Shown: piece by piece, positions 3,659 to 51,750 of the stretch
How positions within the stretch are numbered: position 1 is the first letter of the stretch
Layout: each line of letters starts with the position of its first letter
Virus record (IMG/VR): IMGVR_UViG_3300028025_001180
Source of the DNA: a virus
Taxonomy: Duplodnaviria; Heunggongvirae; Uroviricota; Caudoviricetes
DNA length: 64,000 bases
Strand: one strand, 5' to 3'
Position numbers and translations under genes: made by a program
Notes under the pieces: generated by a model
What the model was told of the DNA's origin: nothing
Databases searched by the model: none
What the model saw: only the letters and a program-made list of their open reading frames with translations

Positions 3659-3659
3659 A

Positions 3660-6600
3660 TTATTTTAATTTAGCTTCTAATTCTTCAATACGTTTTTCCA
3701 AACTAGCAACCTTTGCCACTAACACTTGTGCGTAAGACAAAGATAAGAAACCATCTTCACTTTCTATCACTGCACTTGGTAATATTTCTTGTAAGTCCTG
3801 TGCGTAGTATCCTAATTCCTCTTTACCATCTTTTATGTATAGCTTAGGCTTTATAGCCTCTATTCCACTAATTATAGGCTTATCACTTATTTCTTTCTTT
3901 AAACGCTTATCTGAAAATTCAAAGAATGATGTAGCTGTGACTGAAGAACTAAATGTAGCAGCACCTGTTGTTGCAATTTTTAATCCTGTTGGGTCGCTTC
4001 CACCTGCAGGTCTTAACCATATACCATTTCCTGATGTAGATTCTAATAATGAAAATGATGAAACTACTTCCCCAACAAACATAGAATTACCTGCTAAAAT
4101 TCTTGAAGTAAACCTTCCTGTACCATTAACATCTAACTTGTATCCACTATCTGTTGTAGTACCTATTAATACGTTACCACCATTTTGATTTAATGCTAAT
4201 GGTTTATAACCTATTAATTGCTCTACTGCTTGTATTGTTCCATATCCCAATGAGTGATAACCAAATATTAATTGAGCATTTGTATTACTTGCTCTTTGTA
4301 TAACAAGTTGCTCATTACCTGCATCTGCTGAAATTGTTAATCTATTTCTAAATATACCTGTACCATTAACATCTAATTTATATCCTGCGTCAGTTGTAGT
4401 TCCTATTAATACATTACCACCGCTTGTGATTCTCATTCGTTCGCTTCCTGCATTCTCAAATATTGTTGCAGCAGATTCAGAGTTATTGATATAAAGATTT
4501 GTACTATCATCTATACCAATAAACGTACCATCGCTTGTACCTTCTCCTGTGTTTGAATTAACTAAGTGTAATTGCGCTCTGTTTGCAGTACCTGCACCAT
4601 AGATTTGTAAAACTCTATTATTTGATGCTTGACCTGTTGCATTTGCAGTTCCTATTCCTAAATTGCCACCACTTGTTATCCTAGCCCATTCTGTATATGT
4701 TAAACCATTTGTACCTAATCTTCCAAATGTTAAAAATCCACCTCCTGCTCCATGTGCAAATAAATCTGTACTATTACCTGCTGCTAAGTCTTGACCTAGT
4801 CCAGCAAATACATTTGTTCCATTATCATACACTAAAAATTTAGCTCCAATTCCTGTTCCAAGTGAAAGTTTTGAATATCCTAAAGGGTTAGTAATTCCAA
4901 TACCAATTCCTGTACCACTTTCATACATTATGCTATTCCCAATAGAACTTGCACTACTCCATTTAGGAATATAGTTGGTAGTACCACTACCTGTTACACC
5001 ACTTCCACCACCTCCTCCAATAGTTACACCATTAATTTGGAATACACCATTAATGTTTACGTTACCATTAACTTGTAAAGCTCCTCCACCTGTAATACCT
5101 GCAGTATTAATTAATACTTGGCTAGCTTGATTAATAGTCATTACAGTAGTTAAAATACTACTTTGTAATGTCTTAAAATATAAAACTCCACCAGTTCCTG
5201 CAAATTTACTTCCTTGTATTTGTGCTTTTGTTTGACCAATATCAGCCTTAAAGTTTAAAAAAGTATCACCTGCACTATTATCACCAGAGATGCTTAATGT
5301 AGCATTTGTTGTAGGTCCACCTACTATTACTTCACCACCGCTTGTGATTCTCATTCGTTCGGTACCATTTGTAATAACACCTAAATCGTGATTAGTAAAA
5401 GTACCAATCAATCCTAAAGACGAATAAGTAATACCAGTTCTTATTGTTCCATTACCAGCTGCAACTGCACCGCCTATTACATCAAGTTTCTCACTTGGAC
5501 TACTCGTTCCGATTCCAACATTACCACCATTAGTTAATACCATTTTAGCAGCACCTCCACCTGTTTGCCAATTATGACTTAAAGCATCATAGTTAAGATT
5601 AGTATAAGCTGAACCTGTATAAGCCTGTATGTCTACTGCAGATGCTTGAGTTAATCTTAATGTGCTTCCTACAAATACGCTACTAGATAACGTAGCAGCA
5701 CCTGTAACTCCTAATGTACCACCAAATGTTCCATTTCCACTTGCAGCAAAATCACCATTGCTACCACCTGTAGCTGATATATTAACTCCTGGTGTACAAA
5801 CGTGAGTTAATGTAGAACCTGTTTGAGCTGACCCTCCAAATGTAACTGTTTCATTGTTTAAAGGATACACCTCAACATTCATTGTACAGACATTAGGAGA
5901 ATTGCTAGTTGCTTCAACTGAAAAGTTTTCATCATTATTACTTATAACTCTTAAAGTTAATAATGTGTAAATACCTGCTTGAGAGGTGATTAAAATATCT
6001 TGGGAATGATTTACTAAGATGTCAGCTGTTACGTTGATAACTACACTTCCAGTGGTGCCTTGCAATGTCATTCTAACAGCAGATGCTAAAGCATTACCTG
6101 TTACATTACAAACCACTGTATATCCTGCATTACTTACATTAGCTGTAGAAACATATCTCTTAACAGCTCTTTCAAGTGAGCTTGAATTAAAGTAATAATC
6201 TGTAGCACTTACAGTGCTTGAGAATGTAGCAGATCTATCAGTAGCAATAGATAACGCAGTTGTAAATGTATTAGAAGTGGCTATATCAGCCCCACCTGAA
6301 ACTCTTATAGTAAAAGGGACTGATGCAAATCCTAAAAAAGGATTCTGTCCTCCTATTTTTACAAACCCTAATCTTGGAACTGCTTGTGCATCTGTTCCAA
6401 TATAAGTGGATTCTCCATTTACACTAATGGTACCAGTAGGTGAAAAGATTATATTATTAGTCCAAGCTCCTCCATTTAAATGCCAAAAAGCTAAATCATA
6501 AGTAGCATCTTGTTGTAAAATCCAACCTCTATTATTTGTACTATCTAATATTGTAAATCTTGAACTACCTCCTACTGTATTTGAACTACCTGCTCCATTT

Positions 6601-8191: not shown

Positions 8192-11100
8192 TTATATAAA
8201 TGTAAATTCTCTCCATGATGTACTTGTTTTAACCCATAATCCTTCAACTCCATCAGTTTGATATACTATTAATCCTGTTGCTGGTGACGATATTGCCAAT
8301 CTTTGAGCAGCTGTCATCACAGGAGGTAAGAAACCTTGAGTGGTAGAAGAAACTTGTAAAGCAGCAGTTGCAACTGAAGTGGTTGTTCCTATGTTAGTTG
8401 TACCTGCAACACAAAGACCATTAGTAGGAGCTACAGTTGATGTTGAATAACCTATTGCAACGTTTCCATTTACTTGTAAACGACTGCCTATTAAGTTGTA
8501 AGCTAATGCAATACCAACATTACCTGATGAAGATATTACTAATTTATCTGCATTTGTGCTTGTAAAAAATGATAAATAGTCATTTGTATTATCATAAATT
8601 ATTCTACCTTTAAAATCTGTTCCACTAACTGAAAAATCTATTACACTACCACCTGTTGCACTACCATTCATTTGTAAATATGCATAGTTTGCATCACTAT
8701 GCATATGTAATCCCAATCCTATTGTTGAACTTGAACCTCCTGTTACATATAGCTGAGAAGGGAAACTTGTACTACCAATAGAAGTGTATCCATTTATATA
8801 ACTATTAGAACCCAAAGTTATCAATGCCCCTGTATCTGTAATATTACTATTACCTATTGTAGTTGCACTTGTAAACTTAGCCACTGTGTTTGTAGTACCA
8901 GAAACTGCCACTGATGTTCCAGACGATCCACTAGTTCCAGATGTTCCAGATGAACCAGAGGTTCCGCTTGTTCCTGATGTACCACTAGTACCTTTAGTAC
9001 CACTGGTTCCACTCGAACCAGATGTAGCAGAAGTTCCACTAGATCCACTTGTAGCAGACGTACCTGATGATCCATTAGTACCAGATGTACCACTAGAGCC
9101 AGAAGTTCCACTAGTTCCTGTTGTACCACTTGACCCTGATGTAGCAGACGTGCCAGAACTTCCAGATGTTCCACTTGTACCAGACGACCCACTAGTACCA
9201 CTAGTTGCAGAAGAACCTGAAGATCCACTGGTTCCTGAACTTGCTGAGGTGCCAGAGCTGCCATTTGTTCCTGCAATCCCTGAGCTACCTGAAGTTCCAG
9301 CTGTACCATTACCTCCAGAAGCACCATCAAGATTTACTGTCCATGATGTAAATGTACCAGATCCCACTGTTCTAGTTGGGGCTCCAAATTGAAGAGCTCC
9401 TGTAGATGGGTTGTATGATACCACCTCACACTCTTGAAAGTTTGTAATGCTATTAACTATTATTATAGATTGAGCCACTGAATATGCCAACCCTGTTCCT
9501 ACAGTGATTGTCCCAGCATTGCCTAAAGTGAAGGATGTAGTAGATGTTGTTTGATATCTATCTCCAGATAATCCTGCAGTTCCAGATGTTCCAGACGTAC
9601 CAGTAGAACCACTTGTACCAGATGTTGCTGAAGTTCCAGACGTACCCTTAGTACCACTTGTACCACTTGATCCAGAGCTTGCTGATGTACCAGACGAACC
9701 ACTAGTCCCTGAAGTACCTGAACTACCAGACGAACCACTAGTTGCAGATGTGCCTGAGCTACCACTAGTACCAGATGTTCCAGATGAGCCACTACTACCA
9801 GAAGAAGCTGAAGTACCTGATGAGCCTGATGTAGCACTAGTGCCAGATGAACCTGAGGTTCCACTTGTTCCGCTAGTTCCCTTTGTACCACTAGTTCCAC
9901 TTGAACCACTCGTACCTGCTGTGGCATTTATACCTGAAGTACCAGCAGTAGCATTTAAACCAGATGTTCCAGAGGTACCTTGTAAACCAGAAGTACCTGA
10001 AGTAGCTGAAGTTCCAGATGTACCAGAAGAGCCAGAAGTACCAGAAGTTCCAGACGTACCTCCTCCTACAATAAGAGAAGCCTCAAAATAACTTCCTGTA
10101 CCTGAAGTATTAATATTTTGTGAAGTTGTATTTCCTGTAAAAGCAGTAACTTCTAAATAATCTGTACTTCCATTTAAGTAAATAATTTCATTTATTTGTT
10201 GAGCATACCCAGCACCACTTAATATTTGAGTTTGATTTATGCCAATTTGAGTAGAACCATTTTTTCTAAATTGTATATTAGTTTGATTGTTTGTAACAGC
10301 ACCAGCATCCCACCAAATTTGAGCATTAACATTGTAATATCCAGCAATAGTTGGCTGAAATTTATTTGGTGTGAACCAACTATTAGGATCAACATCATCA
10401 ACAAATGCTACAACTTGGTCAGATCCATTTGTTATAGTTTGTGGTGCATTTTTTATAGCTCTAAAAAGATAATTAGATGCTACTAATCCTGTAGGAGAAA
10501 TACCACTAGACCCACTAGTTCCAGCTGTACCACTGCTTCCAGAAGTACCAGACGTACCAGTAGATCCTGATGTACCTGATGTTGCTGATGTACCACTAGA
10601 TCCAGATGTGCCACTAGATCCAGATGTACCACTGGTTCCACTTGTAGCAGAAGACCCTGAAGTTCCACTAGTGCCTGATGTACCCTTAGTTCCAGATGTT
10701 CCACTTGAACCTGAAGTTGCAGATGTTCCGCTACTACCACTTGATCCACTAGTACCACTTGTTCCAGAAGAACCACTAGTTGCACTCGTACCACTTGATC
10801 CAGATGTTCCACTAGATCCAGAAGTACCACTAGTTGCTGAAGTTCCAGAAGAACCATTTGTTCCACTAGTACCAGATGAACCATTAGTTCCACTTGTGCC
10901 ACTAGTTCCTTTTGTTCCACTAGTTCCACTAGACCCAGCAGTGCCACTTGAACCAGAGGTTCCAGTAGAACCACTTGTTCCACTTGTTCCACTTGATCCA
11001 TTGGTACCACTTGTTCCACTAGAACCTGATGTGCCAGATGAACCAGAGCTTCCACTTGATGCAGAAGTTCCTGAAGATCCTGATGTGCCAGAAGTTGCAG

Positions 11101-14100
11101 ATGAACCACTTGATCCAGATGTACCTGCTGTGCCACTTGAACCACTTGTTGCACTGGTTCCACTTGATCCACTTGTACCACTAGACCCATTGGTTCCAGA
11201 AGAACCAGATGTACCACTAGTTCCAGAACTACCACTTGTTGCAGATGTTCCAGACGTACCAGATGTACCCTTTGTTCCACTAGTTCCACTTGATCCAGAT
11301 GAACCACTTGAAGCTGATGTACCAGAAGATCCAGATGTTCCAGATGTTCCAGAAGTTCCATTCGCTCCAGATGTACCAGAGGTACCAGAAGGAGGAGTAA
11401 ATGTAGTTTGTGCGTATGAATAATTACTTACACCCTCTGTGTAGAAAGTTATTGTATTAGCAGAGCCACCATTATGTTGTGCATAGATTTGACAATATAG
11501 TCTGTCTGTTGCGTTCAATGCAGTTTGACCTAAGAAAAGATCAGTGAAAAACTCTTTGATGACACCAGTGGTCATACCCTCTGTGTCTAAGTTTGTAGTA
11601 CCTAGAAGAGTAGATGCTCCTCCTGTTGTATATTTATATAGCTCTATATCAACTGCTACATTTACATTTGCGTTGATAGAAAAGTGAGTGACCCAAGCCC
11701 AGTTTCCTGAAGGTAGATTTGTAGCATTTGGTATACCTGAATCTGTAGCATAAGTTGCTATTAGTGTACGAACATTTTGTGTAACACTTAGTACCACAGT
11801 TTGTTCAGCAGTACCTGTACCAATAGGTGACCACTCTTTATATGTAGGTGTGCCAAAAGCACTATTTGTATTTACAGATTGATTTAAGTAGTATATAAGA
11901 CCTCCAGCCACACCACTTACACCAGAACTTCCTGCTGTACCAGATGTACCTGAACTGCCTGATGTTCCACTGCTTGCAGACGTACCAGATGTACCTGCTG
12001 TTCCACTTGATCCATTAGTACCACTAGTTCCAGTAGTTCCAGATGTTGCAGAAGTTCCGCTCGATCCATTGGTTCCACTAGTTCCACTAGTTCCAGATGT
12101 ACCTTTTGTACCACTAGTTCCAGAGCTTCCACTAGACGCAGAAGTACCAGAAGAACCAGAAGTAGCACTTGTACCAGAACTTCCATTAGTACCTGCTGTT
12201 CCACTCGAACCAGATGTTCCACTTGTTCCACTAGAACCACTTGAACCAGAAGTTCCTGAACTACCAGATGTTCCAGAGGTTCCACTAGATCCTGACGAGC
12301 CACTTGACGCAGATGTACCTGAAGTAGCAGAACTACCAGAAGTCCCTGAGGACCCATTAGTTCCACTTGAGCCATTGGTTCCAGATGAACCTGAAGAGCC
12401 TGAAGAACCACTGGTTGCAGATGTACCAGATGTTGCACTTGTACCAGAAGAACCAGAAGATCCACTTGTGCCTGAAGAAGCAGAAGTACCAGAAGACCCA
12501 CTAGTTGCAGAGGTTCCACTAGAACCTGCTGTTGCACTTGTACCTGATGAACCAGATGTTGCAGATGTGCCAGATGAGCCACTTGTTCCTGAGCTACCAG
12601 AAGTTCCACTTGTAGCAGATGTACCTGCAGTGGCAGATGTACCAGAACTACCAGCAGTGCCAGACGAACCACTCGTACCACTAGAACCATTGGTACCAGA
12701 TGTACCATTTGATCCAGCTGTACCACTAGTTGCACTAGTTCCATTACTTCCATTTGTGCCACTTGTTCCAGAAGAACCACTGGTGCCACTTGACCCAGAA
12801 GTACCTGCTGTAGCACTAGTTCCTGCTGTACCACTAGATCCAGATGTAGCAGATGTACCAGACGTAGCAGATGAACCAGAAGTTCCTGCTGTTCCAGAAC
12901 TACCATTAGTGCCACTAGTTCCACTAGTGCTACTAGTTCCAGAAGTAGCAGAGGTTCCATTAGACCCACTAGTACCAGAAGTACCAGACGACCCACTTGT
13001 TGCAGAAGTACCACTAGACCCATTTGTTCCAGATGTGCCTGACGATCCACTTGTCGCACTGGTTCCACTAGAACCAGAGGTACCAGATGTTCCTGTTGTG
13101 CCAGAACTACCACTAGTAGCACTTGTTCCACTTGAGCCAGATGTACCAGAAGTACCAGAAGACCCTGAGCTTCCACTTGTACCAGAGCTACCTGATGTAC
13201 CACTAGAACCATTGGTGCCAGCTGTACCAGCACTTCCTGACGTACCTGAGCTACCATCTCCACCTGATGCACCATCTAGATTGACAGTCCAAGTGGAATA
13301 TGTGCCAGAGCCTACAGTTCTGCTAGGAGCACCAAACTGAAGGGCTCCTGTATTAGTATTATAAGAAATTACCTCACATTCTTGGAAATTTACACTATCA
13401 TACACTATGATAATAGACTGTGCCAATGTATAGGCTAGTCCTGTACCAACTGTGATTGTTCCAGCGTTTCCTAATGTAAAAGATGTATTTGATGTTGTTG
13501 CGTATCTATCACCACTTAAACCAGCAGTTCCAGAAGATCCAGAAGAACCAGATGTTCCTGAAGAAGCTGACGTACCTGAAGAAGCAGATGTACCACTGGT
13601 AGCACTAGTCCCACTAGAACCAGATGATGCAGATGTTCCACTCGATCCACTAGTAGCTGAAGTTCCACTAGAACCAGACGTTCCAGAAGTTGCAGATGTA
13701 CCACTGCTGCCACTTGTTCCAGCAGTACCACTACTACCACTTGTACCAGAAGTTGCACTCGTTCCAGAACTTCCAGAAGTAGCTGAAGTTCCACTTGATC
13801 CACTAGTTGCACTTGTGCCACTAGAACCACTTGTTCCAGCAGTTCCACTAGAACCAGAAGTTCCACTTGAAGCTGATGTTCCACTAGTAGCTGATGTGCC
13901 ACTTGAACCACTAGTTGCTGATGTACCACTAGATCCGCTAGTACCACTTGATGCTGATGTACCAGATGTACCTGTTGTACCAGACGTACCTGTAGTTCCA
14001 CTAGACCCACTTGTTCCTGAAGAAGCACTAGTGCCACTAGTTCCACTAGAACCATCTGTTCCAGACGTACCTGATGTTCCTGTTGTTCCAGATGAGCCTG

Positions 14101-15403
14101 ACGTTCCTGCAGTACCAGACGTACCATTTCCACCACTAGCTCCATCTAAGTTAACTGTCCATGAGCTATATGTGCCTCCACCAACAGTTCTTGTTGGTGC
14201 AGCAAACACTAACACACCTGTATTAGTATCATAACTTATAATTTCACATTCTTGGAAATTATTTAAGTCATATACTACAATGATAGATTGTGCTACACTA
14301 TATGCTAATCCTGGAGCCACTGTTAGTGTCCCAGCATTACCTAATGTAAATGTATCTGTAGATGTTGTTCTATATCTATCTCCAGAGATACCTGCAGTAC
14401 CTGAGGAGCCTGATGTTCCTGCTGTTCCATAATAGCTACCTAAACTACCATCACCTCTTATATATTGAGCAGTTGTACCATTTGCTGTGACGTTGATATT
14501 TCCACTTGATGTAACTGGTGCTCCCACTGTAAAAGCAGAAGGCATAGTTAGCCCAACACTAGTTACAGTGCCTACTGACCAACCTCTGTTAGCAGATAAA
14601 TTATATGTAACACCATTAATTGTAAGTGTTCTAGTGCTAGGAACAGGTACATATCCTAACACAGATTCAATATCAAGATTTGTAATAGGAGCAGCTGATG
14701 TAACTAATCCTTTTCCATTTACACCAAACTTTAAGAAAGTATTACTTCCATAAATATTACTATTAACTGGTGCCAAAGTAAGAGTTACAGGAGATCCTGT
14801 CGTACCAATTCCAGTTACATCTCCTACAAAAGATAAAGATGCAGAAGGAACAGCTATAGTTACAGGAGTTACATTTGTAACACGTCCTTTACTATCTACA
14901 GTTACTCTAGGAACTTGTGTAGAAGAACCATATGTACCAGGAGCAGTATTAACTGTTGCTAATGTTAGCACAGCAGATCCAGGACCTGTTGCTGTACCAT
15001 CTCCTGTTAAAGCAGAAATATAATTTCCAGCAGGTTGGTATGGTGTATTATCTAAGCTACCATCTCCCTTAACAAAGTCTGAAGAGGTTCCACCAATTGT
15101 AATATGTTTACCAGCATATAAATCTCCTGTATATGTTAAATCAAAACCTGCAGCTGTAATAATTGTGTCACGTACCATAGTGCCACCAAGTCCCACAGGC
15201 AAGCCTGGTCCAGATTGAAAAACACCATTATTAAATAGATATCCTATTGCAGCTTCCTGAAACTTAGCATCTATTTTTTGTAGAGCAGTTTGTAAACTAT
15301 CATTAGTATTGATGCCAGTGTATACTAAATTAGCACCTTCGTAAAATACGCAAGTAGAATTCAGTATGACTGGACATGGTTCAGTGGAGCAAATTGGATC
15401 CAT
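8192..15403 (-). CDS. Giant tail fibre, 2403 aa. Long imperfect collagen-like (G/A-T/S-S)n tracts alternate with three copies of a ~90-aa globular repeat. Its N-terminal Cys module is shared with two other fibre genes.
   Basis: The N-terminus reads MDPICSTEPCPV...CVFYEGANLVYTGINTNDSLQTALQKIDAKF. There are hundreds of GTSGSSGTSATSG triplets. The triplicated module reads LSGDRY-TTS-TSFTLGNAGTITVGTGLAY-AQSIIIV...NFQECEV-SYN--TGALQFGAP-RTVGSGT--WTVNLDGASGG. The C-terminus reads GFLPPVMTAAQRLAISSPATGLIVYQTDGVEGLWVKTSTSW. Confidence 0.85.
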   Translation of the reverse strand: MDPICSTEPCPVILNSTCVFYEGANLVYTGINTNDSLQTALQKIDAKFQEAAIGYLFNNGVFQSGPGLPVGLGGTMVRDTIITAAGFDLTYTGDLYAGKHITIGGTSSDFVKGDGSLDNTPYQPAGNYISALTGDGTATGPGSAVLTLATVNTAPGTYGSSTQVPRVTVDSKGRVTNVTPVTIAVPSASLSFVGDVTGIGTTGSPVTLTLAPVNSNIYGSNTFLKFGVNGKGLVTSAAPITNLDIESVLGYVPVPSTRTLTINGVTYNLSANRGWSVGTVTSVGLTMPSAFTVGAPVTSSGNINVTANGTTAQYIRGDGSLGSYYGTAGTSGSSGTAGISGDRYRTTSTDTFTLGNAGTLTVAPGLAYSVAQSIIVVYDLNNFQECEIISYDTNTGVLVFAAPTRTVGGGTYSSWTVNLDGASGGNGTSGTAGTSGSSGTTGTSGTSGTDGSSGTSGTSASSGTSGSSGTTGTSGTTGTSGTSASSGTSGSSGTSATSGSSGTSATSGTSASSGTSGSSGTAGTSGSSGTSATSGSSGTSATSGSSGTSATSGTSGSSGTAGTSGSSGTSATSGTSGSSGTSATSGSSGTSASSGSSGTSATSGTSASSGTSASSGTSGSSGSSGTAGLSGDRYATTSNTSFTLGNAGTITVGTGLAYTLAQSIIIVYDSVNFQECEVISYNTNTGALQFGAPSRTVGSGTYSTWTVNLDGASGGDGSSGTSGSAGTAGTNGSSGTSGSSGTSGSSGSSGTSGTSGSSGTSATSGSSGTTGTSGTSGSSGTSATSGSSGTSGTNGSSGTSATSGSSGTSGTSGSNGTSATSGTSSTSGTSGTNGSSGTAGTSGSSATSGTSATSGSSGTAGTSATAGTSGSSGTSGSSGTSGTNGSNGTSATSGTAGSNGTSGTNGSSGTSGSSGTAGSSGTSATAGTSATSGTSGSSGTSGSSGTSATSGSSGTSATAGSSGTSATSGSSGTSASSGTSGSSGSSGTSATSGTSATSGSSGSSGSSGTNGSSGTNGSSGTSGSSATSGTSASSGSSGSSGTSGTSGSSGTSGSSGSSGTSGTSGSSGTAGTNGSSGTSATSGSSGTSASSGSSGTSGTKGTSGTSGTSGTNGSSGTSATSGTTGTSGTNGSSGTAGTSGTSASSGTSGSSGTSGTAGSSGVSGVAGGLIYYLNQSVNTNSAFGTPTYKEWSPIGTGTAEQTVVLSVTQNVRTLIATYATDSGIPNATNLPSGNWAWVTHFSINANVNVAVDIELYKYTTGGASTLLGTTNLDTEGMTTGVIKEFFTDLFLGQTALNATDRLYCQIYAQHNGGSANTITFYTEGVSNYSYAQTTFTPPSGTSGTSGANGTSGTSGTSGSSGTSASSGSSGSSGTSGTKGTSGTSGTSATSGSSGTSGTSGSSGTNGSSGTSGSSGTSATSGSSGTAGTSGSSGSSATSGTSGSSGTSASSGSSGSSGTSGSSGTSGTNGSSGTSGTSGSTGTSGSSGTAGSSGTSGTKGTSGTSGTNGSSGTSGTNGSSGTSATSGTSGSSGTSGSSGTSATSGSSGTSGTSGSSGSSGTSATSGSSGTSGTKGTSGTSGTSGSSATSGTSGTSGSSGTSGSSGTSATSGTSGSTGTSGTSGSSGTAGTSGSSGISPTGLVASNYLFRAIKNAPQTITNGSDQVVAFVDDVDPNSWFTPNKFQPTIAGYYNVNAQIWWDAGAVTNNQTNIQFRKNGSTQIGINQTQILSGAGYAQQINEIIYLNGSTDYLEVTAFTGNTTSQNINTSGTGSYFEASLIVGGGTSGTSGTSGSSGTSGTSATSGTSGLQGTSGTSGLNATAGTSGINATAGTSGSSGTSGTKGTSGTSGTSGSSGTSATSGSSGTSASSGSSGSSGTSGTSGSSGTSATSGSSGSSGTSGTSGSSGTSASSGSSGTSGTKGTSGTSATSGTSGSTGTSGTSGTAGLSGDRYQTTSTTSFTLGNAGTITVGTGLAYSVAQSIIIVNSITNFQECEVVSYNPSTGALQFGAPTRTVGSGTFTSWTVNLDGASGGNGTAGTSGSSGIAGTNGSSGTSASSGTSGSSGSSATSGTSGSSGTSGTSGSSGTSATSGSSGTTGTSGTSGSSGTSGTNGSSGTSATSGSSGTSATSGSSGTSGTKGTSGTSGTSGTSGSSGTSGTSGSSGTSVAVSGTTNTVAKFTSATTIGNSNITDTGALITLGSNSYINGYTSIGSTSFPSQLYVTGGSSSTIGLGLHMHSDANYAYLQMNGSATGGSVIDFSVSGTDFKGRIIYDNTNDYLSFFTSTNADKLVISSSGNVGIALAYNLIGSRLQVNGNVAIGYSTSTVAPTNGLCVAGTTNIGTTTSVATAALQVSSTTQGFLPPVMTAAQRLAISSPATGLIVYQTDGVEGLWVKTSTSWREFTFI
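9313..9590 (-). repeat. Copy 3 of the intragenic ~270-bp direct repeat.
   Basis: The reverse complement translates to GLSGDRYQTTSTTSFTLGNAGTITVGTGLAYSVAQSIIIVNSITNFQECEVVSYNPSTGALQFGAPTRTVGSGTFTSWTVNLDGASGG. Confidence 0.7.
13262..13530 (-). repeat. Copy 2 of the intragenic ~270-bp direct repeat.
   Basis: Same module sequence: LSGDRYRTTSTDTFTLGNAGTLTV...NFQECEIISYDTNTGVLVFAAPTRTVGGGTYSSWTVNLDGASGG. Confidence 0.7.
14129..14400 (-). repeat. Copy 1 of a ~270-bp direct repeat that encodes the conserved globular module inside the 2403-aa fibre.
   Basis: About 70% protein-level identity to the copies at 13262..13530 and 9313..9590. The nucleotide similarity is visible by eye. Confidence 0.7.
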
Positions 15404-37788: not shown

Positions 37789-38370
37789 TTATTTATATTT
37801 GTTTAACCAGCCACCATCTTGAGCCAGTGGATATTCTGTAACCATACTACCATCAAACTTATAATCCTTACCAGGATACATCATCTTCCTATCACCTGTA
37901 TCAGATATGCCAAGTACAGGATAGTCAACTCCCTTCATTGTTATTTCATTAGAACCTATCTGTGTTATCTCACCTGGATGAGCCCACTGACCAAGATCAT
38001 CTTTAATGGCAGAACCATTCTTAGATATAGTCTTAGGTTTAAAGTCTAATCCTTCTTGGTAGAACTTCATCTCTTGACCATTCTGAGCACTTGCTTTTGT
38101 CTTCTTAGTATACTTACCATTAGCAGGAGCTGAGCCAGCTACACGTGCGTATGTGAATCCTACAGCACCTGGCATAGATCCCCCCATCTCCATAGTGCCT
38201 CCCCATGCTCCATTATAGTTAAATCCTTTGTTAGTTGTTCCTTCACCTACCCAACCTGGTCCAGCTGTGGAATATCCAGCATTGGCATTCTCTTTCTTGC
38301 CATAGTTATCCTTAGTCTTTTTCTTTAAGACCAATCCTCCTTGTTCATATTTGTCTAACCAGTTAGCCAT
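37789..38370 (-). CDS. Gly/Tyr-rich structural protein, 193 aa. Both termini carry a WL[DN]KY motif (MANWLDKYEQGG ... DGGWLNKYK).
   Basis: ORF track. Its start overlaps the upstream stop by 1 nt (TAATGG). Confidence 0.55.
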   Translation of the reverse strand: MANWLDKYEQGGLVLKKKTKDNYGKKENANAGYSTAGPGWVGEGTTNKGFNYNGAWGGTMEMGGSMPGAVGFTYARVAGSAPANGKYTKKTKASAQNGQEMKFYQEGLDFKPKTISKNGSAIKDDLGQWAHPGEITQIGSNEITMKGVDYPVLGISDTGDRKMMYPGKDYKFDGSMVTEYPLAQDGGWLNKYK

Positions 38371-39236
38371 TATTTGTAAGAGATTTGAGCAGGTGCAATA
38401 ATGAATTGAGAAACTATATGTGCTTCAGAGCTATTGTCAAGAATGTGTCTCACCTTAAGATCCTTAGCTCTTAATGGTTCTTTCTTGAATGATCTTTTTC
38501 CATAATCCATATTCACTTGATTTACAACCTTATCTATTGATAAAGTTTCACAACTTGTTGAAAACAAAGGTAATGCTTTATTCTTAACTAACCCCCAGAA
38601 TGTATTGTATTGATAGAAGTTATCTGACTTAGTATAAGTAATAGTCTTGCTAAACTCATTATATATAGGATAGGTTAAGTACTGACTTAGGTTATTGATT
38701 GGCTTTGGTACAAGTTCTAATATACCTGTGGACTGTTGTCCATTGTATAGAACAGCTTTGTTAAACCATTGATTATCAACCTGTACCTGAGCATTGTCAT
38801 TAAACACACCATCTGGAATAGGTAAGTAATTAAACACCTTACTATAGTCTTTTACATTCTGAAGTATCTCATCATATGTTTGGTAAGCAAATGGATATTC
38901 AATTATGTATGGTTCTATATTACCATAATACTTGTTATAGTTAACTACATCTGTTAGATGTCTCCACATAGATCCTGTGTTACATACAGTGTATTGTAAA
39001 GCAGCTAGTTGTTCTTTAGTAGCTGTACCAATTGTAACATTGATACTAGTAGAACATTTACCTTGAGATTGTATAACTATTGTAGTAACAGCATCAGCAA
39101 CACTAACAGTGTAACCATCAATAAGGTTTTGCTTAGTAATGTCAGTGCCCAAAACTGTCCCTAAGTTATCAGAGATATCAAAGGGTCCTGTTCTGCCACC
39201 TGAGCAAGTTAATCTTATTATTACTGTCTTAGCCAT
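38370..39236 (-). CDS. Hypothetical tail or structural protein, 288 aa.
   Basis: ORF track. Compact spacing within the structural block. Confidence 0.55.
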   Translation of the reverse strand: MAKTVIIRLTCSGGRTGPFDISDNLGTVLGTDITKQNLIDGYTVSVADAVTTIVIQSQGKCSTSINVTIGTATKEQLAALQYTVCNTGSMWRHLTDVVNYNKYYGNIEPYIIEYPFAYQTYDEILQNVKDYSKVFNYLPIPDGVFNDNAQVQVDNQWFNKAVLYNGQQSTGILELVPKPINNLSQYLTYPIYNEFSKTITYTKSDNFYQYNTFWGLVKNKALPLFSTSCETLSIDKVVNQVNMDYGKRSFKKEPLRAKDLKVRHILDNSSEAHIVSQFIIAPAQISYK

Positions 39237-45340: not shown

Positions 45341-46077
45341 TAGCTTGTTGGTTTTGCATTGGGAGCTTGTCCATCAATGCCATCAAATGTTTGGTCTGTT
45401 TTAATGCTAAAGTATGTCGATAATAGTTTTTGAGAAGTAAGTTGTAACACTTGTGTTATTAAGTAACCAGGACATCCATATTCCTTGTCTAATGGATTTA
45501 TACAATAATCTTCATCACTAACTTGAGGTATATTCCCACAAGCACAACCATCAGGATATAAAATGCTATTTGGAACATCTTCTTCAAAGAAGGCAGATAT
45601 TCTAACTGATTGTAAATTAGGATTGTTGATATATAAGTACCCACCATTTGCTATCCAATAGTATTGTTCAGCTTTGATAATAGGTAGTTTTAATAGATTT
45701 AAGTATCTATTGATTGTAATCTCTTTGAATCTTTTACCATTACCTCCCATAGCGTTTATAGAATAAACACCTTGGATTAAGTATTGATAGTTTCCCTCAC
45801 TGATGCGAGGAAGTTTATATCTGCTTCTTGCAACTTGACATGGTTCCACATATTCACAACAATCAGAGATGGGCACCTCTATCATTTCCAAACAAGGAAG
45901 TGTTTGGAATACAGTGTCAGTAGCCCAAAGCTTTCTGAGATTGGTCTCACGTTTGATTAGTAAAAGTGTGTTGTTCTTGATTTCAGACGCAACTACTCTA
46001 TCAGTAATTAGATTATCTGTAGTGAGCAATTTATGTACTGAACGTACATCTGAAACCATTTGTCTTAATGTTGCCAT
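45340..46077 (-). CDS. Cys-containing hypothetical structural protein, 245 aa.
   Basis: ORF track. Start and stop are coupled with the neighbouring genes. Confidence 0.5.
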   Translation of the reverse strand: MATLRQMVSDVRSVHKLLTTDNLITDRVVASEIKNNTLLLIKRETNLRKLWATDTVFQTLPCLEMIEVPISDCCEYVEPCQVARSRYKLPRISEGNYQYLIQGVYSINAMGGNGKRFKEITINRYLNLLKLPIIKAEQYYWIANGGYLYINNPNLQSVRISAFFEEDVPNSILYPDGCACGNIPQVSDEDYCINPLDKEYGCPGYLITQVLQLTSQKLLSTYFSIKTDQTFDGIDGQAPNAKPTS

Positions 46078-47327
46078 TATAAATACTGTTTGAATATATT
46101 TGTCATTCCATCACAGTCATCTATTAAAAATCCTGTTACTTCTGCCTTGGACATTGTGTGACCCATCTTGTCGTCCCAAAGACTTTTAGCATTTGAAAAT
46201 GCTGGAATTTGATAAAACTTTATACCATTAAAATCATGACTCACCTCATGGTGTTTGTCTCCTGTGAAGATGTAGAACTTGCTATGACTAGACCAATGTT
46301 CTCTAAACTCTATTGGAAATAAGGCTGCAAGCTTAGCTGGTTTGATAGCATCTCCATGGTTAAACATTAATGCTGAATCACCATAGCTTACGTACTTTCT
46401 ATACTTAGGAGAACAATCAAATGTTAATCTGTCTACGTTCCTGAAGTAGGTTTGTAACCAATTAACCATATGCCACCCTACAAACTCATCATGATTACCT
46501 GCTACATAGACTACATTAACAGTCTGAGCATATTGTAATAACATTGTAATCATTAACACCTCATGTCCACAGATGTATTCAAAAGATGTATGATATGTAT
46601 GTGTATTCTGTTGAGGAGTTCCTTTTGTAGTGGCATTAGTATACTCACTGTTAAACTCATCAGATCCTATTATATAAGTTATGTTCTCTAAGTTGTTGGA
46701 TAACTGAGCTTGATTAGCTATCAGTTCCACCTTGTACATAATGTTAGCTAGTCTGTCTGCTACATTATTGTTACCATCTATGTCCCATTTGTTTAAGTGA
46801 GAGTCTTGTTTGTTAATAAGTAACATACCATTTGGTTTGTTAAAATCAACCTTAGGGCTCATAACTTCTTGAGAAACAGGCTTATATGAAGCTAAAAAGT
46901 CTACAAACACATCTTGAAAAACTTGCTCTGTAGACTTCTTCCCTAACCATGCTTTGACTTGCCAATGAGGATTGTTTCCATTTCCCCAGAAGTTTTGGAC
47001 ATATTTGGTTATCTCCCACTTCTCTGTATCTATCTTACACTTCTCAATGAGTTCATCAAGACTTTTAACTTCTTCACTAAAATTAGCTACAACCTCTCCT
47101 GTACCCTTAGCCAAATCTTCTGTAAACTTAATCACTGCATTTTCTAACTCAGCAACGTAGTTTCCTATCTCAGCAGCTTCTTCACTTTGTTCTTGATTTC
47201 TTAATTCTTTTAATAGCTCATCCACCTCAAACTCTGTAATTCCAAGCTTATCAGCATAGAACTTTTTACTTTTTTTCCAGTGTAGAATCTCTTCTAGCTG
47301 TTGTAGCAAGGATTGATTTTCAGGCAT
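46077..47327 (-). CDS. Calcineurin-like metallophosphoesterase-fold protein, 416 aa, with an N-terminal coiled-coil. The motif set is incomplete, so it may be divergent or catalytically altered.
   Basis: VYVAGNHDEF (GNHD/E motif III) plus FNHGD and FTGDKHH. The canonical N-terminal GDxHG and GDxxDRG motifs are not recognisable. Confidence 0.55.
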   Translation of the reverse strand: MPENQSLLQQLEEILHWKKSKKFYADKLGITEFEVDELLKELRNQEQSEEAAEIGNYVAELENAVIKFTEDLAKGTGEVVANFSEEVKSLDELIEKCKIDTEKWEITKYVQNFWGNGNNPHWQVKAWLGKKSTEQVFQDVFVDFLASYKPVSQEVMSPKVDFNKPNGMLLINKQDSHLNKWDIDGNNNVADRLANIMYKVELIANQAQLSNNLENITYIIGSDEFNSEYTNATTKGTPQQNTHTYHTSFEYICGHEVLMITMLLQYAQTVNVVYVAGNHDEFVGWHMVNWLQTYFRNVDRLTFDCSPKYRKYVSYGDSALMFNHGDAIKPAKLAALFPIEFREHWSSHSKFYIFTGDKHHEVSHDFNGIKFYQIPAFSNAKSLWDDKMGHTMSKAEVTGFLIDDCDGMTNIFKQYL

Positions 47328-47509: not shown

Positions 47510-48136
47510 TTATGAACTACAGCTAGCATTTAAACTAAATGAACCAGAGCTAGTGAAACAGTTCACTGTGTCTGTTCTTAAGCGATAGCTACCTGCAGAT
47601 AATGTGTTAAGAGCCAAATCAGATGTCCAACTACCTGGAGCAGAACCTACCTGAGTATAGTTGAATGTGTACAACACTGTATCATTAGCAGCATTCATAA
47701 TGTACGCTGTATAAGTTCTTGTACCACTTCCAGAGTAGTAATATCCACCAGGAGTGATTAGAGCTGTATTTCCTGCAGTCACTGTGAACAGAGCTGATTC
47801 TCCACCTGCACATGATGCCACCGCACTTGTATCACCAGTTAAACATGCTGGAACTGGTGTAGTTGATGTACTTGTTGTAGAAGTAGAAGAAGTACTAGTA
47901 GTAGTAGTGGTAGTTGCACCACTTAAAAGCATATCTAGATAATTTGTACAAGTGCCTGTAGATTGTGCTCTGATAACAGATGCTGCATCTGGTACACCTG
48001 TAAGGCTATATCCTGCCAATAATGCAGCTCTAGATACTCCTGTTGCTAATGGTGTAGTATATCCATCTACATTTGAAAAAAGGTTAAAGGGACCTACATC
48101 TGTCCCTGCTAAAGTTAATGTTACTAATACTGTCAT
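47510..48136 (-). CDS. Ser/Thr-rich surface protein, 208 aa, with a poly-Thr/Ser linker. Candidate fibre distal domain or decoration protein.
   Basis: TTTTTTSTSSTSTTSTSTT linker. It starts 14 nt after the 86-aa anchor-module ORF and is followed by a strong terminator. Confidence 0.6.
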   Translation of the reverse strand: MTVLVTLTLAGTDVGPFNLFSNVDGYTTPLATGVSRAALLAGYSLTGVPDAASVIRAQSTGTCTNYLDMLLSGATTTTTTSTSSTSTTSTSTTPVPACLTGDTSAVASCAGGESALFTVTAGNTALITPGGYYYSGSGTRTYTAYIMNAANDTVLYTFNYTQVGSAPGSWTSDLALNTLSAGSYRLRTDTVNCFTSSGSFSLNASCSS

Positions 48137-48150
48137 AATTTTTTTTTATT

Positions 48151-48411
48151 TTATGGACACTCACTCAATAGGTTACAAAGCATACTTTTTAACTGTACGT
48201 TATTTCCAATAGCAGTTAAAATTGCTTGTGCTAATGCTGTTGGGTCTAGTTCACTATCTATTTTTTCAATAGCAACTGTTAAACAATCATGTGTTTGAAT
48301 GCCTGAATAAGGTAAGTTAGGTCCACTATAATATACGCAATTTGAATTAATCTCAGAACAGCAATCATTTGATTGATATCCTCCACAGTTCATTCCTGGT
48401 AAACAAGCCAT
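48151..48411 (-). CDS. ORF of 86 aa consisting only of the conserved N-terminal fibre-anchor module.
   Basis: MACLPGMNCGGYQSNDCCSEINSNCVYYSGPNLPYSGIQTHDCLTVAIEKID aligns with the N-termini of the 2403-aa and 376-aa fibres. Confidence 0.5.
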   Translation of the reverse strand: MACLPGMNCGGYQSNDCCSEINSNCVYYSGPNLPYSGIQTHDCLTVAIEKIDSELDPTALAQAILTAIGNNVQLKSMLCNLLSECP

Positions 48412-48430
48412 TTATTGTTGGTTTAATATG

Positions 48431-49561
48431 TTAAGGAATATACATAATGTAATATGCACCTATCACAGGTTGGATATTTGCATGTGCTGCTCCGCTACCT
48501 GTAGATTCTACTGTAACAGATGTACTTGTAGAAGCCACTGTAATACCTGTTGTACTAGTTACAGCTTGGATATCTTTAGGAGATGTATTACCAACAGCAA
48601 TTGTTCCACTACCACCAGTTACACCACTCTGTCCAATAGCATGTGTATGACCTGGGTCATTTAATGTAACAGTTGTATTTGCTACAGCATTGTGGGCATG
48701 TGCAGGTAGTTGTGGTGTAGTTAAAGTTATAGTGTTTGCTCCTGATGTGGTGTACAAAGAATAGTTTGGGTTGCCAGCATTAGCTGGATTTACCGCAGCA
48801 TCTAAAGAAGCACCTGGTACATTGTTAATAGCACCAACTGCTACACGTCCTCTTTTATCTGGAGTGCCATTTAATCCATTACACAAATACACTTTGAAGA
48901 AACCATTTGCTGGGATGCCAATACCTGATCCATCAAAATTTGATATTGACCCATAGTATTCATAGGCTACATAAGGAACCATTTTTAAATACTGTTGATT
49001 AGAGTTACCACTACCTTGACCAGCTATATAAGCTGCTATCAAAGCATCCAAGTCTGCTAACTTAACATAGTTTGTATCTACATCAAGCTCAAGAGCAACT
49101 AGGTCAGCCACTGTTGTACAAAGCTTATTTATAATAGCTTGGACAATAGCATGTGTATCTGAGCTAGATGTTACTCCTGTTAAACAACCAATTGTATAGT
49201 CAGCATTTAATGTAGTTATATCAGCAGCAACTGCAGTTATTTGAGTTTGTAAATTACAAACTACTTTAACTAATGTTTGGAACAATTGTTCAGAAGTCCA
49301 CTGATTTGTACCTACAGGAGTAGGTAAATAACCATTTACAATTGCACAACGTATACCTGAGGCAATAGTAATTTTGTCACCTGTTCCACTTAATAAAGGA
49401 ACTAGTTTATCAATTATATTTTCTATAACTAATTGAAGATTATCTCCAGATGTTATATCTAAAGGCACACTATCAAGACCTGTATAGGTAACACATTGAT
49501 CAGATACAACTTGTACGCATCCATTATAACAAGGTTCAGGAGGGCAATTTGAACAAGACAT
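48431..49561 (-). CDS. Tail fibre, 376 aa, with a phage tail-collar domain (MdpB-like) and the shared N-terminal Cys anchor module.
   Basis: KRGRVAVGAIN...TITLTTPQLPAHAHN and the C-terminal AHANIQPVIGAYYIMYIP match the tail-collar domain signatures (R-G-R-x-x-x-G; Q-[LM]-P-x-H-x-H; QPY-x-x-x-Y-I). The N-terminus reads CPPEPCYNGCV...CVTYTGLDSVPLDITSGDNLQLVIENIIDKL. Confidence 0.75.
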   Translation of the reverse strand: MSCSNCPPEPCYNGCVQVVSDQCVTYTGLDSVPLDITSGDNLQLVIENIIDKLVPLLSGTGDKITIASGIRCAIVNGYLPTPVGTNQWTSEQLFQTLVKVVCNLQTQITAVAADITTLNADYTIGCLTGVTSSSDTHAIVQAIINKLCTTVADLVALELDVDTNYVKLADLDALIAAYIAGQGSGNSNQQYLKMVPYVAYEYYGSISNFDGSGIGIPANGFFKVYLCNGLNGTPDKRGRVAVGAINNVPGASLDAAVNPANAGNPNYSLYTTSGANTITLTTPQLPAHAHNAVANTTVTLNDPGHTHAIGQSGVTGGSGTIAVGNTSPKDIQAVTSTTGITVASTSTSVTVESTGSGAAHANIQPVIGAYYIMYIP

Positions 49562-49568: not shown

Positions 49569-49835
49569 TTATTTATGAATTAACACTTTAACTCTACTAG
49601 CTATTTGGGACACAGTGAATCTTATGGCATAATCTGGATTACAATATTTATAGGTTAATATCCTTTTGTAATTCAAAAGATCACCAATCACAGGACCAGG
49701 TAGATAGTTAGTCATAGAGAAGATGATATTGTTGTATTCTTGTTTAGCTAGATCTGTAAGTTTACAATCAATATCAGTAAGTAAAGCAGGAATGCTAGCA
49801 CATTCTATACAGTTAGTTAATCTTGGCTGTAACAT
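49569..49835 (-). CDS. Hypothetical protein, 88 aa.
   Basis: ORF track. It overlaps by 20 nt the untracked 44-aa Cys-rich ORF in another frame. Confidence 0.45.
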   Translation of the reverse strand: MLQPRLTNCIECASIPALLTDIDCKLTDLAKQEYNNIIFSMTNYLPGPVIGDLLNYKRILTYKYCNPDYAIRFTVSQIASRVKVLIHK

Positions 49836-49947
49836 ATTTAATCAGATTTGTAGCTTGTTTTGCAGCATAATTACATGCTGAACATAAGCCATTAATTAAT
49901 TGACATCCACAGCCCACTTTGGTTCCACAATTTCTACAGTTTGCCAT
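49816..49947 (-). CDS. Untracked 44-aa Cys-rich ORF, MANCRNCGTKVGCGCQLINGLCSACNYAAKQATNLIKYVTAKIN. It has a zinc-ribbon-like C-x2-C-x5-CxC-x6-C-x2-C pattern.
   Basis: Hand translation of the minus strand. The ATG lies 2 nt after the upstream stop. It fills an otherwise unusual 113-nt gap in a compact operon and ends at TAA (49813-49815). Confidence 0.4.
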
Positions 49948-49948: not shown

Positions 49949-50554
49949 TTAATAAAAATTTATAATATAGTTATTTCCTGTGCAACCACAGTTATTTCTA
50001 ATAAAGTTATTTAACATGCGATCTGCTTGCATGTATAATTTGTTTGCTGTATCTACAGCACAGTTATTTGCAGCAGCTATTGATCCTGAAATCATGTAGT
50101 AAATACTATTTAAGTTTACCTTTGCTTGTGTTCTAATAGCTGAATCACACTCCATTAAGTCAAGTTTCATAAATGCATTATCAAACTTCTCTTGTATCAA
50201 CTCAGTACGCATAATGTTCTTTTCTACATTATACGTTATAGCAGGAGAAACTGTATATTTCAAATAGTAAATACCATCTGGTAAAGGAATCAAAGGTTCA
50301 CCAACAGCAGACAGTCCTAAAGATGTAGAATTGAATATATTAAACTCATTAGGAGTGAAAGGTAAAGAAACCACCCCAAAGTTAGGAACAGTGATTTCTA
50401 TTGTAGGGGCAGTTACAACAGGAGGATTTGTATCATATGTTGATGCATCAGCAACACCCAAAGTTAAAGTGTTGTAAGTTGGTATTACTAGTATATCTAA
50501 GACCATGTTATTTAAAATAATAATGCCAGAGGATTTGAGAATTAATCCTCTCAC
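49949..50554 (-). CDS. Hypothetical structural protein, 201 aa as listed in the ORF track. The true start is probably Met17 (ATG at 50506), because the tracked start is a GTG that sits inside a terminator hairpin.
   Basis: The track start translates GTG AGA GGA. Nucleotides 50525-50562 form the hairpin GCCAGAGG...CCUCUGGC followed by a U-rich tract on the minus strand. Confidence 0.55.
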   Translation of the reverse strand: MRGLILKSSGIIILNNMVLDILVIPTYNTLTLGVADASTYDTNPPVVTAPTIEITVPNFGVVSLPFTPNEFNIFNSTSLGLSAVGEPLIPLPDGIYYLKYTVSPAITYNVEKNIMRTELIQEKFDNAFMKLDLMECDSAIRTQAKVNLNSIYYMISGSIAAANNCAVDTANKLYMQADRMLNNFIRNNCGCTGNNYIINFY

Positions 50555-50589: not shown

Positions 50590-51750
50590 TTAAGGGATCA
50601 AAGTAGTTGTTGTTGAAGTACTAGGCCATACAGTAGTTGTAGTGCTAGTAGTAGTGATACAAGCAGTGTCACCAGCTACAGCTCCTAAAGCAGCAACTAA
50701 TATAGCTTCGATAGCTGTTGTTTGATTCTCAGGAACAGCGATGATTACCATGCTATCTTCCATGATATAGTCACCCCATTGGTAAGCACTCTTATCATAC
50801 TCATTGAATTTGATATAGTACAAATCATAGATTTGACCATCAGTTACCCAAGACTCAAAGTTCTCGTTGTAACCATTCATTCTGTATAAATGCTTTAAGT
50901 AACCAGCTTGGTAGCTATAGAAGTTCTTCTCTAATTGTTGAACTTCAGCAGAAGTACCAACAGCATAGTTAGATCTTTGACGAATGATTGGCTCAGCAAC
51001 TCTATTACAAGGATCATCAACAATGAAGTCAGCAGTTGTAGCTGGACCAGCAAAGATGAAAGTTCTAAAGTAGAATCTGTCATACTCAAAAGGGAATGCA
51101 GCAACATCACAAGGCTGACCATATTTAGTTAATGGCTTACCAGTAATACGTAAGAATGCACTTTGATTGTTACCAAGTCTTTGGAATTGATAGAAATCAC
51201 TCAAATAGATATTGTCTGGGTTGTCACCAGGAGCTCTAGATTCTAACTTAAGAATCAAAGCATCAATCAATGCAGGCACATCTACATCTGTACAAGGATC
51301 ACCACCACATTCTAAACATGGAGCGTTTACTGTTACAGAACGAGTGAAACCATTGAAGTACAATGTGTTCAAGTAGCTAGAGAAACCACGTAAAGTTAAG
51401 GTGATAATTTCACCTGGTTTTACTGTGAAATCAACTACGTCAGTTACTTGATTCACTGGAGTAGGACAGCCTAAAGACTTGTACCACTCAGTTACATTTG
51501 AAGTACATCCAGATCCACTAGGACATCCTTTGATCTTGTCAGATCTTTTAGAGCCTTGTAAATACGTGTTTGTTCTACCTTGAGCAACATAGAAATAAGG
51601 GGCAGCAGCAACGTTAGCAGCTGTGGCAACAGTGTAGTCATTTAGGAAAATACCTACTTGACCAGCTGTTAAATTCTGTGTAGATCCAGAGCTAGGTAAT
51701 GTGTTTCCTACTGGTACTACAAAGAGGGTGGTTAGTGAAAAATCCGCCAT
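50590..51750 (-). CDS. Structural protein, 386 aa, with a C-terminal poly-Thr/Ser tail. Candidate head-tail or decoration component.
   Basis: ORF track. ACITTTSTTTTVWPSTSTTTT linker. It is followed by a terminator-like hairpin. Confidence 0.6.
   Translation of the reverse strand: MADFSLTTLFVVPVGNTLPSSGSTQNLTAGQVGIFLNDYTVATAANVAAAPYFYVAQGRTNTYLQGSKRSDKIKGCPSGSGCTSNVTEWYKSLGCPTPVNQVTDVVDFTVKPGEIITLTLRGFSSYLNTLYFNGFTRSVTVNAPCLECGGDPCTDVDVPALIDALILKLESRAPGDNPDNIYLSDFYQFQRLGNNQSAFLRITGKPLTKYGQPCDVAAFPFEYDRFYFRTFIFAGPATTADFIVDDPCNRVAEPIIRQRSNYAVGTSAEVQQLEKNFYSYQAGYLKHLYRMNGYNENFESWVTDGQIYDLYYIKFNEYDKSAYQWGDYIMEDSMVIIAVPENQTTAIEAILVAALGAVAGDTACITTTSTTTTVWPSTSTTTTLIP

Follow-up and report, generated by a model that had tools for sequence, protein, structure and literature searches.

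The stretch of DNA analysed here, 64,000 nt of a virus of the Caudoviricetes (IMG/VR record IMGVR_UViG_3300028025_001180; hereafter the window), corresponds to the structural block of a crAss-like phage, in which all large open reading frames (ORFs) bar one lie on the minus strand. Three of these minus-strand ORFs are the subject of this report: a 376-aa short fibre (48431-49561), an 86-aa ORF (48151-48411) and a 2403-aa collagen-like giant fibre (8192-15403; Pfam Collagen, E = 2e-117). An earlier reading of the letters by themselves (the sequence-only reading) had proposed that they share an N-terminal module of ~50 aa, serving as an adaptor through which different distal parts attach to the same site of the virion, and the ORFs were confirmed as it described them. 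The block contains, in order, the terminase, the portal, a Band_7 protein, the major capsid protein (MCP; Crass_capsid) and several small virion genes, followed by the 376-aa fibre, the 86-aa ORF, a 208-aa ORF and a transcriptional terminator. After the terminator come a 416-aa exonuclease-like gene, Ring 2, an IHF-like gene, Ring 1 and the muzzle protein, and last the giant cargo/RNA polymerase-like proteins and the appendage proteins of 2403, 1502 and 560 aa. The Pfam families CrAss_Ring_1, CrAss_Ring_2, crAss_MUZ and Crass_capsid were matched in the window or in orthologous loci, and the gene order of the window is collinear with gp32-gp44 of crAss001. A 12-kb portion of the window, compared by megablast with 50,697 deposited phage genomes, gave no match. 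The relatives are metagenomic contigs of 100-125 kb and, where their sample names reveal an environment, it is freshwater; the window apparently belongs to an uncultured, mostly freshwater crAss-like lineage.

The 2403-aa fibre, the 376-aa fibre and the 86-aa ORF begin with homologous sequence, and this likeness is not due to chance. When compared by BLASTP with the 29 window proteins, the 2403-aa N-terminus and the 86-aa protein were 45% identical over 44 aa (E = 1e-11), the 2403-aa and 376-aa N-termini 32% identical over 44 aa (E = 5.5e-4) and the 376-aa N-terminus and the 86-aa protein 27% identical over 62 aa (E = 6e-4), and none of the remaining proteins scored better than E = 0.15. Taking BLASTP and phmmer together, the E-values ranged from 1e-11 to 6e-13 for the first of these pairs and from about 2e-4 to 6e-4 for both pairs that involve the 376-aa fibre, with nothing else below E = 0.04. 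A hidden Markov model (HMM) of the module, built from 100 homologues that all came from other contigs, with the window sequences excluded, was then run on the 367 window ORFs and recovered the N-termini of the 2403-aa fibre (E = 3.7e-22) and the 376-aa fibre (E = 1.9e-4), the next ORF standing at E = 0.82. Profile-profile comparison related the N-termini of 53 fibres of the 376-aa type to the family of the small protein (96.7% probability, E = 3.2e-10), the giant-fibre type to the same small family (99.9%, E = 2.8e-32) and the giant-fibre type to the 376-aa type (92.5%, E = 5e-7). The alignment of the three N-termini that had been put forward was thus borne out by in-window searches, by the outside-only HMM and by profile-profile comparison.

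The module occupies residues ~4-54 of the 2403-aa fibre (nt 15242-15403), residues ~1-55 of the 376-aa fibre (nt 49397-49561) and residues 1-54 of the 86-aa protein (nt 48250-48411). As had been noticed, it is lacking, by the module HMM, from the 1502-aa fibre (3660-8168, minus strand; Pfam Collagen and Peptidase_S74; module HMM E = 9.5) and from the 560-aa BNR-like protein, the cassette partner of collagen/S74 fibres (1976-3658, minus strand). Of the common pattern first drawn up, the positions Y-x-G, L, I, D and K-I-D are invariant, but the cysteines are not part of the conserved core; the cysteine of CV-x-Y, for instance, is an Asn in 87-aa orthologues. Because several of them are replaced in orthologues, the cysteines were discarded as module-defining residues. 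The part of the 376-aa protein behind the module is tail-fibre-like: its C-terminus matched PHROG 8469 'tail fiber protein' (E = 5.5e-16; PHROG tail-fibre families at E = 5.5e-16 and 1e-14) and, weakly, Pfam Gp10_C (E = 0.0025, 19.2 bits versus a gathering cut-off of 27). The protein had no match among PDB sequences, and the 'tail-collar' label previously given to it could not be confirmed, as the Pfam Collar family did not match it at E ≤ 0.1.

A search of the module profile against 1.84 billion representatives (clusters at 50% identity, E ≤ 1e-3) returned a family of 847 clusters, with protein lengths between 68 and 1983 aa. The module almost always occupies residues ~1-60; it starts at or before residue 10 in ~92% of the best 150 of the 847 clusters, and it is N-terminal in each of 174 module-bearing ORFs from 90 sources. 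In IMG/VR, the small-protein type accounts for 416 stretches and the giant-fibre type for 97. When 101 family members were compared with Pfam-A and PHROGs, no meaningful match was obtained (best E = 0.0097 and 0.0022, with 1-2 members each), and the 86-aa window ORF had no Pfam, PHROG or PDB counterpart. By tblastn, neither the 86-aa ORF nor a central member of the family had a match among the 50,697 deposited phages. Residues 1-60 of the 2403-aa protein had no significant match in that collection, where the sole listed match overlapping the module had E = 0.2 and the other matches of this N-terminus corresponded to a generic fibre repeat (residues 116-186). A description of the module was not found in the literature. 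Judging from these searches, the module is the core, of ~55 residues, of a previously undescribed N-terminal domain family.

We collected 80 loci of the kind that holds the 376-aa and 86-aa genes (hub-proximal loci) and called their ORFs with our own script. Nearly all of them contain a fibre of 358-406 aa (slot 1, the 376-aa fibre in the window) followed by a second module gene (slot 2, the 86-aa ORF in the window), mostly 3-21 nt apart. The occupant of slot 2 is highly variable. Among 42 distinct complete genes, 30 encode 80-113 aa, one encodes 128 aa and 11 encode 221-1541 aa, and two more partial genes exceed 470 aa; the handle-only state is therefore the majority in this slot, at about 70% (30/42). 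Two long forms were distinguished. In three loci (L010, L032 and L034) the module runs directly into collagen G-x-y repeats, and module residues 1-54 of these fibres are 74-85% identical to those of the window's 86-aa protein (74% for L032, 85% for L010). In about a dozen loci a whole domain of ~95 aa, including a helical end with an F-C-x-L-V-x-x-C motif, precedes a long poly-Thr/Ser linker and C-terminal domains that are unrelated to one another, and certain 'small' slot-2 genes retain just a poly-Thr stub. The parts found behind the module include a DUF5122 propeller, Collagen and Peptidase_S74. The swapping of distal domains behind the same module, which comparative genomics had been expected to reveal, is thus present within a single slot, where the protein ranges from 80 to >1541 aa and ends in collagen, a propeller, poly-Thr with globular domains, or nothing.

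The point of exchange can be placed by comparison with a close IMG/VR relative, the 105-kb contig L032. DNA homology between the two, which extends from the 88-aa gene that precedes slot 1 across slot 1 itself, is lost at codon 52 of the 86-aa gene and returns exactly at the stop codon of this gene. Between break and resumption there are 104 nt in the window and 6.6 kb in L032, the latter coding for the remainder of a collagen/S74 fibre of 1541 aa and for a BNR-like protein of 721 aa. Since homology breaks at the end of the module and resumes at the stop codon, we conclude that cassette exchange has occurred at the module boundary. Together with the N-terminal position in 174 of 174 ORFs and the swaps described above, this break sustains one half of the adaptor proposal, namely that the module is a portable N-terminal handle.

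The other half, attachment to the same site, is doubtful. At the distal locus, 80 IMG/VR loci contain giant fibres of 453 to >1500 aa with their own module subtype, and in 20 of them one or two additional handle-only ORFs (59-131 aa) precede the giant fibre. When all module ORFs were classified with three subtype profiles, 76 of 76 slot-1 proteins fell into type C, 85 of 87 slot-2 proteins into type A and 77 of 78 distal giant fibres into type B. These assignments hold whatever follows the module, so that collagen-like fibres are found behind type A (L032) and also behind type B (window). Moreover, at least eight IMG/VR contigs combine the pair of hub-proximal genes with a type-B fibre at the distal locus. 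Because the subtype follows the slot and not the cargo, this distribution argues for distinct docking positions instead of competition for one common site.

Two further arrangements were observed among these loci. A fourth module subtype (MRTAxICPTCA..NAxCVxYxGxYL...KIN) is carried by ORFs of 59-131 aa and 217-226 aa directly upstream of giant fibres (L006, 7805-7984; L098, L100, L103, L106, L112, L144-L167; 20 of 80 distal loci). The window is devoid of it, only 152 nt separating its 1666-aa and 2403-aa ORFs. In addition, a two-gene cassette of a fibre and a BNR-like protein is found in two places, the fibre being of the collagen/S74 type in the window and in L032. In slot 2 (L032, 9998-16788; L177-L181) the fibre is fused to a subtype-A module, and at the distal locus (window, 1976-8168; L172-L176) it is module-less. 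We considered whether the 1502-aa fibre of the window might represent the body, now detached, of a slot-2 fibre such as the 1541-aa protein of L032, and discarded this idea; orthology is not supported, because the C-terminal S74 domain alone is common to both (54% over 101 aa).

By comparative criteria, the 86-aa ORF is a real, conserved gene, essentially handle-only, and not a frameshift fragment. Its type is kept as a standalone ORF of 80-113 aa in >100 clusters, and the ratio of non-synonymous to synonymous substitution rates (dN/dS), calculated against six orthologues, is 0.20-0.42, which points to purifying selection. The concern that the ORF might lie within a longer gene after a frameshift was answered in the negative. 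Its description as the adaptor alone needs some refinement, since the ~50-aa module is followed by a strongly conserved helical subdomain of ~30 aa (residues 55-86; nt 48154-48249), and both together make up the complete domain of ~85-100 aa seen in slot-2 proteins elsewhere. An AlphaFold2 (AF2) monomer model of the protein had a predicted local distance difference test score (pLDDT) of 82, rising above 90 for approximately residues 20-85, and contained short strands and helices at residues 43-53, 56-69 and 71-82. Residues 1-16, which bear the near-invariant C...PC motif, are disordered in the model, as would be compatible with a segment that becomes ordered only upon binding. Segment identities show that the gene is a mosaic: residues 55-86 are identical to those of the 87-aa orthologue of L001 at 28 of 32 positions, the N-terminal 24 residues differ from it (6/23), and residues 1-54 resemble instead the long fibre of L010 (22/24 and 24/30 identical).

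In crAss001, Ring 1 and Ring 2 bear a collar of twelve THA2/THB hubs (PMC10172136). The trimeric fibre gp22 is lodged in each hub by its N-terminal residues 1-26 (Bayfield et al. 2023, PMC10172136), and gp22 in turn bears further fibres (PMC10172136). Three genes upstream of slot 1, the window contains a 185-aa ORF (49949-50506, minus strand, with a GTG at 50554 as a possible longer start) whose predicted structure is a beta-sandwich with three helices (pLDDT 78). On the basis of this fold it would be a homologue of tail hub protein A (THA) of crAss001, and we propose it as the docking partner of the fibres. An 88-aa ORF (49569-49835, minus strand), conserved in 79 related-locus ORFs, occupies the position of crAss001 THB, an identity that is putative. 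Between these two genes there is a 44-aa Cys-rich ORF (MANCRNCGTKVGCGCQ..., 49813-49947), kept in ~75 related-locus ORFs, which may be a small structural or zinc-binding component of the hub.

The reading that we favour, with a probability of roughly 0.6, is that of a slot-tied trimeric anchor on the collar of the THA/THB hubs that carries exchangeable cassettes. According to it, the ~55-residue sequence would be the core of the N-terminal anchoring domain of appendage proteins, a domain that is most likely trimeric, that most likely fixes its protein to the virion, and that exists in at least three paralogous subtypes per genome (C on the ~376-aa fibre, A on slot 2 and B on the distal giant fibre). 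The most probable site would be the collar of tail hubs, the genes of which lie just upstream, in parallel to the N-terminus of crAss001 gp22. Everything past the K-I-D-x-x-L boundary is an exchangeable cassette, which may amount to nothing, to a poly-Thr linker with a small globular domain, to a beta-propeller or to >1500 aa of collagen-like fibre. The 86-aa ORF is slot 2 in its handle-only form; it would fill a position that assembly needs filled and show no receptor-binding part. The comparisons above show the homology, the N-terminal position, the slot-specific subtypes, the exchange at the boundary and the conservation of handle-only genes, whereas attachment to the virion, as a trimer and at the hub, is inferred. 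A trimer is most likely because the module can lead straight into collagen repeats or a short coiled coil (collagen G-x-y repeats or heptad coiled coils in L010, L032, P0026 and P0057), and docking at the hub is favoured because of gene adjacency, of the tail-fibre-like distal parts and of the hubs' need for binding fibres.

Several observations weigh against this reading. All the sequences are metagenomic, and the presence of these proteins in virions is a prediction from gene sequences. By hhalign, the 185-aa ORF gave only a weak collinear match to THA (E = 0.004, probability 8.5%), the 88-aa family showed no significant match to THB gp39, which leaves the THB assignment unsupported, and the module family (101 sequences) compared with residues 1-150 of gp22 gave E = 0.46 and a probability of 0.1%. 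The family profiles of the 185-aa and 88-aa ORFs had no crAss001 match among PDB sequences. Besides, a poly-Thr extension of ~25 aa precedes the module in some slot-1 proteins (L011, L016, L023-L030), and 40-120 residues precede it in ~10 of the 80 giant fibres (L144-L157, L164, L167); such extensions fit poorly with an N-terminal arm that is buried, unless start codons were mis-called or are unusual. Finally, if homotrimers of all three subtypes competed for 12 hubs, the stoichiometry would be left unexplained.

A tentative extension, to which we would give little weight at present, is that handle-only proteins might be obligatory structural 'blanks', each subtype owning a position on the 12-hub collar or on the base of a branched fibre. 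If this were true, the lineage could tune the number and kind of displayed appendages by swapping blank and loaded versions, and one small domain would provide a genetically encoded switch of valency and host range.

It is unlikely, in our opinion, that the module is instead a capsid-binding anchor seated in hexon pockets formed by MCP and auxiliary proteins, in which case the proteins would be head fibres and the 86-aa protein a minimal head decoration. The precedent comes from crAss001, where the trimeric gp21 (97 aa) and the dimeric gp29 (122 aa) are head fibres and their N-terminal 38 and 58 residues, respectively, lie in hexon pockets (PMC10172136). Like them, the handle-only proteins of 60-110 aa are small and would combine an N-terminal virion-binding segment with a tiny distal part; a T=9 capsid with several non-equivalent pocket types could host paralogous subtypes without competition, and MCP and an auxiliary-protein-like ORF of 386 aa lie in the same transcription unit. 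However, the module here also heads fibres of 376-2400 aa, and their distal parts are typical of tail fibres (the PHROG tail-fibre C-terminus, collagen with an S74 chaperone, the propeller). A putative homologue of the THA hub is also present and would need docking fibres, and the slot-1 fibre, the most constant of all, is encoded beside the hub genes. The module family has no sequence or fold similarity to the capsid-binding segment of gp21 and gp29, and its hhalign comparison with the gp21 N-terminus was not significant.

Quite improbable, too, is a role of the module as a fibre-to-fibre junction or hetero-oligomerisation domain, by which the paralogues would co-assemble into a branched fibre complex; its bundles would be completed or capped by handle-only proteins, or these would bring in fibres that lack the module, for example the 1502-aa protein. 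The co-occurrence of 3-4 subtypes on contigs would suit such an arrangement, as would the handle-only ORFs directly upstream of giant fibres in 20 of 80 IMG/VR distal loci and the further fibres carried by crAss001 gp22. The helical subdomain of the 86-aa protein is better conserved than its N-terminus (28/32 versus 6/23), which suggests a conserved interaction surface, and the window's 1502-aa fibre is module-less where the comparable cassette of L032 is fused to a module. Nevertheless, collagen-like and tail-fibre-tip parts should form homotrimers, leaving no room for one chain per subtype in a bundle, and the 1502-aa and 1541-aa fibres have only the S74 domain in common.

That the 86-aa ORF is a non-functional remnant, left after loss of a distal fibre cassette, seems very unlikely. 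The idea draws on the 1541-aa fibre that L032 holds in the same slot behind a module 74% identical (85% in L010). Yet the ORF does not end in truncated fibre sequence: its end is a defined helical subdomain, 88% identical to that of 87-aa orthologues. Its handle-only state is that of most distinct slot-2 genes (30/42), and conservation in >100 clusters, a dN/dS of 0.2-0.4 and a confident AF2 fold also speak against a remnant.

The gene that follows, which encodes 208 aa (47510-48136, minus strand), begins 14 nt past the 86-aa stop codon and is followed by an intrinsic-terminator-like hairpin of 10 bp, 7 of them G-C, with a T-run (47470-47447, minus strand), which ends the transcription unit; both the short spacing and the strong terminator had been reported correctly. 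The 208-aa protein consists of an N-domain of ~72 aa, 47-84% identical across loci, a poly-Thr/Ser linker and a variable C-domain, and it stands outside the module family. We reject the suggestion that the 86-aa and 208-aa proteins are halves of one fibre split by gene fission: although the two genes share a transcription unit and certain slot-2 proteins (221-337 aa), in which a poly-Thr linker joins the domain to a small C-domain, superficially look like 86 + 208, the 208-aa protein is not the detached distal half. It has a conserved N-domain of its own, paralogous to one in the 288-aa ORF that follows the muzzle gene, and it keeps its own gene even where the slot-2 protein upstream is 282, 337, 628 or 1541 aa long; no 86 + 208 fusion was seen among the 174 module ORFs. 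The paralogous N-domains of the 208-aa and 288-aa (38370-39236) proteins, of ~63-72 aa, are 36% identical, and this looks like a second, independent family of 'anchor plus variable domain' proteins.

Among modular receptor-binding proteins, a conserved N-terminal particle-binding domain with exchangeable C-terminal parts is found in T7 gp17, in the P22-type tailspike (its head-binding domain) and in depolymerase spikes from podophages of Klebsiella and Acinetobacter. The module shares with these proteins the combination of a conserved N-domain, a variable distal part and breakpoints at the domain boundary. It differs from them in its unrelated sequence and fold, in having several slot-specific paralogues per genome and in that the handle-only form is the commonest in one slot. 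The likeness to the C-terminal domain of the T4 gp10/gp12 short fibres concerns only the distal part of the 376-aa protein, through the weak Gp10_C and the PHROG tail-fibre matches, with a Gp10_C score below the gathering cut-off and no PDB sequence match. The closest parallel is the gp22/hub system of crAss001, a member of the same virus order: Ring 1, Ring 2, the muzzle and, by fold, a putative THA homologue are found here too, the fibre genes lie near the hub genes, and here too a short N-terminal segment would hold a trimeric fibre. On the other hand, the handle of the window is a folded Cys-containing domain of 55-100 aa without similarity to residues 1-26 of gp22, it comes in 3-4 paralogous subtypes per genome along with handle-only genes, and its docking is putative.

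Crass-like phages are abundant and, to our knowledge, crAss001 provides their only virion structure; its fibre-anchoring segment is unrecognisable in environmental relatives. The family described here provides a signature by which the likely anchoring end of appendage proteins can be recognised in the sequences of a large, uncultured lineage of crAss-like phages. It allows fibre and receptor-binding genes to be spotted in metagenomes and marks the boundary at which host-range cassettes are exchanged. In slot 2, the handle without a distal part is the commonest state and a selectively maintained one, which implies a structural role of the anchor independent of receptor binding. What is new is the protein family, since the general principle, in which the N-terminal anchor is conserved and the distal part can be exchanged, is textbook knowledge, and the value of the family lies in annotation and in a testable question of assembly, not in a new concept.

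Some minor features of the locus and its relatives deserve a record. The 416-aa protein (46077-47327), which matches PHROG 704 'DNA repair exonuclease' (E = 3.6e-45), is encoded within the tail-gene block, after the terminator and between the fibre genes and Ring 2, and this position is kept in the related loci examined. Long poly-Thr/Ser tracts recur in virion proteins as interdomain linkers or C-terminal tails (50590-51750 and 47860-47925 in the window, and many related loci); they are carried by the 386-aa auxiliary-capsid-like protein, at its C-terminus, by the 208-aa protein and by slot-2 proteins, and are reminiscent of glycosylated linkers in surface proteins of Bacteroidota. A divergent crAss-like lineage (L173, L175 and L176; contigs of 100-131 kb) has a comparable gene pair upstream of the exonuclease-like gene, in which a 411-aa protein matches the module marginally in one locus and the proteins of 148-220 aa match it with E-values of 8e-9 to 2e-6. 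In this lineage the pair is followed by several genes that share another common N-terminal domain (MATLTINFT...YxVKYWP).

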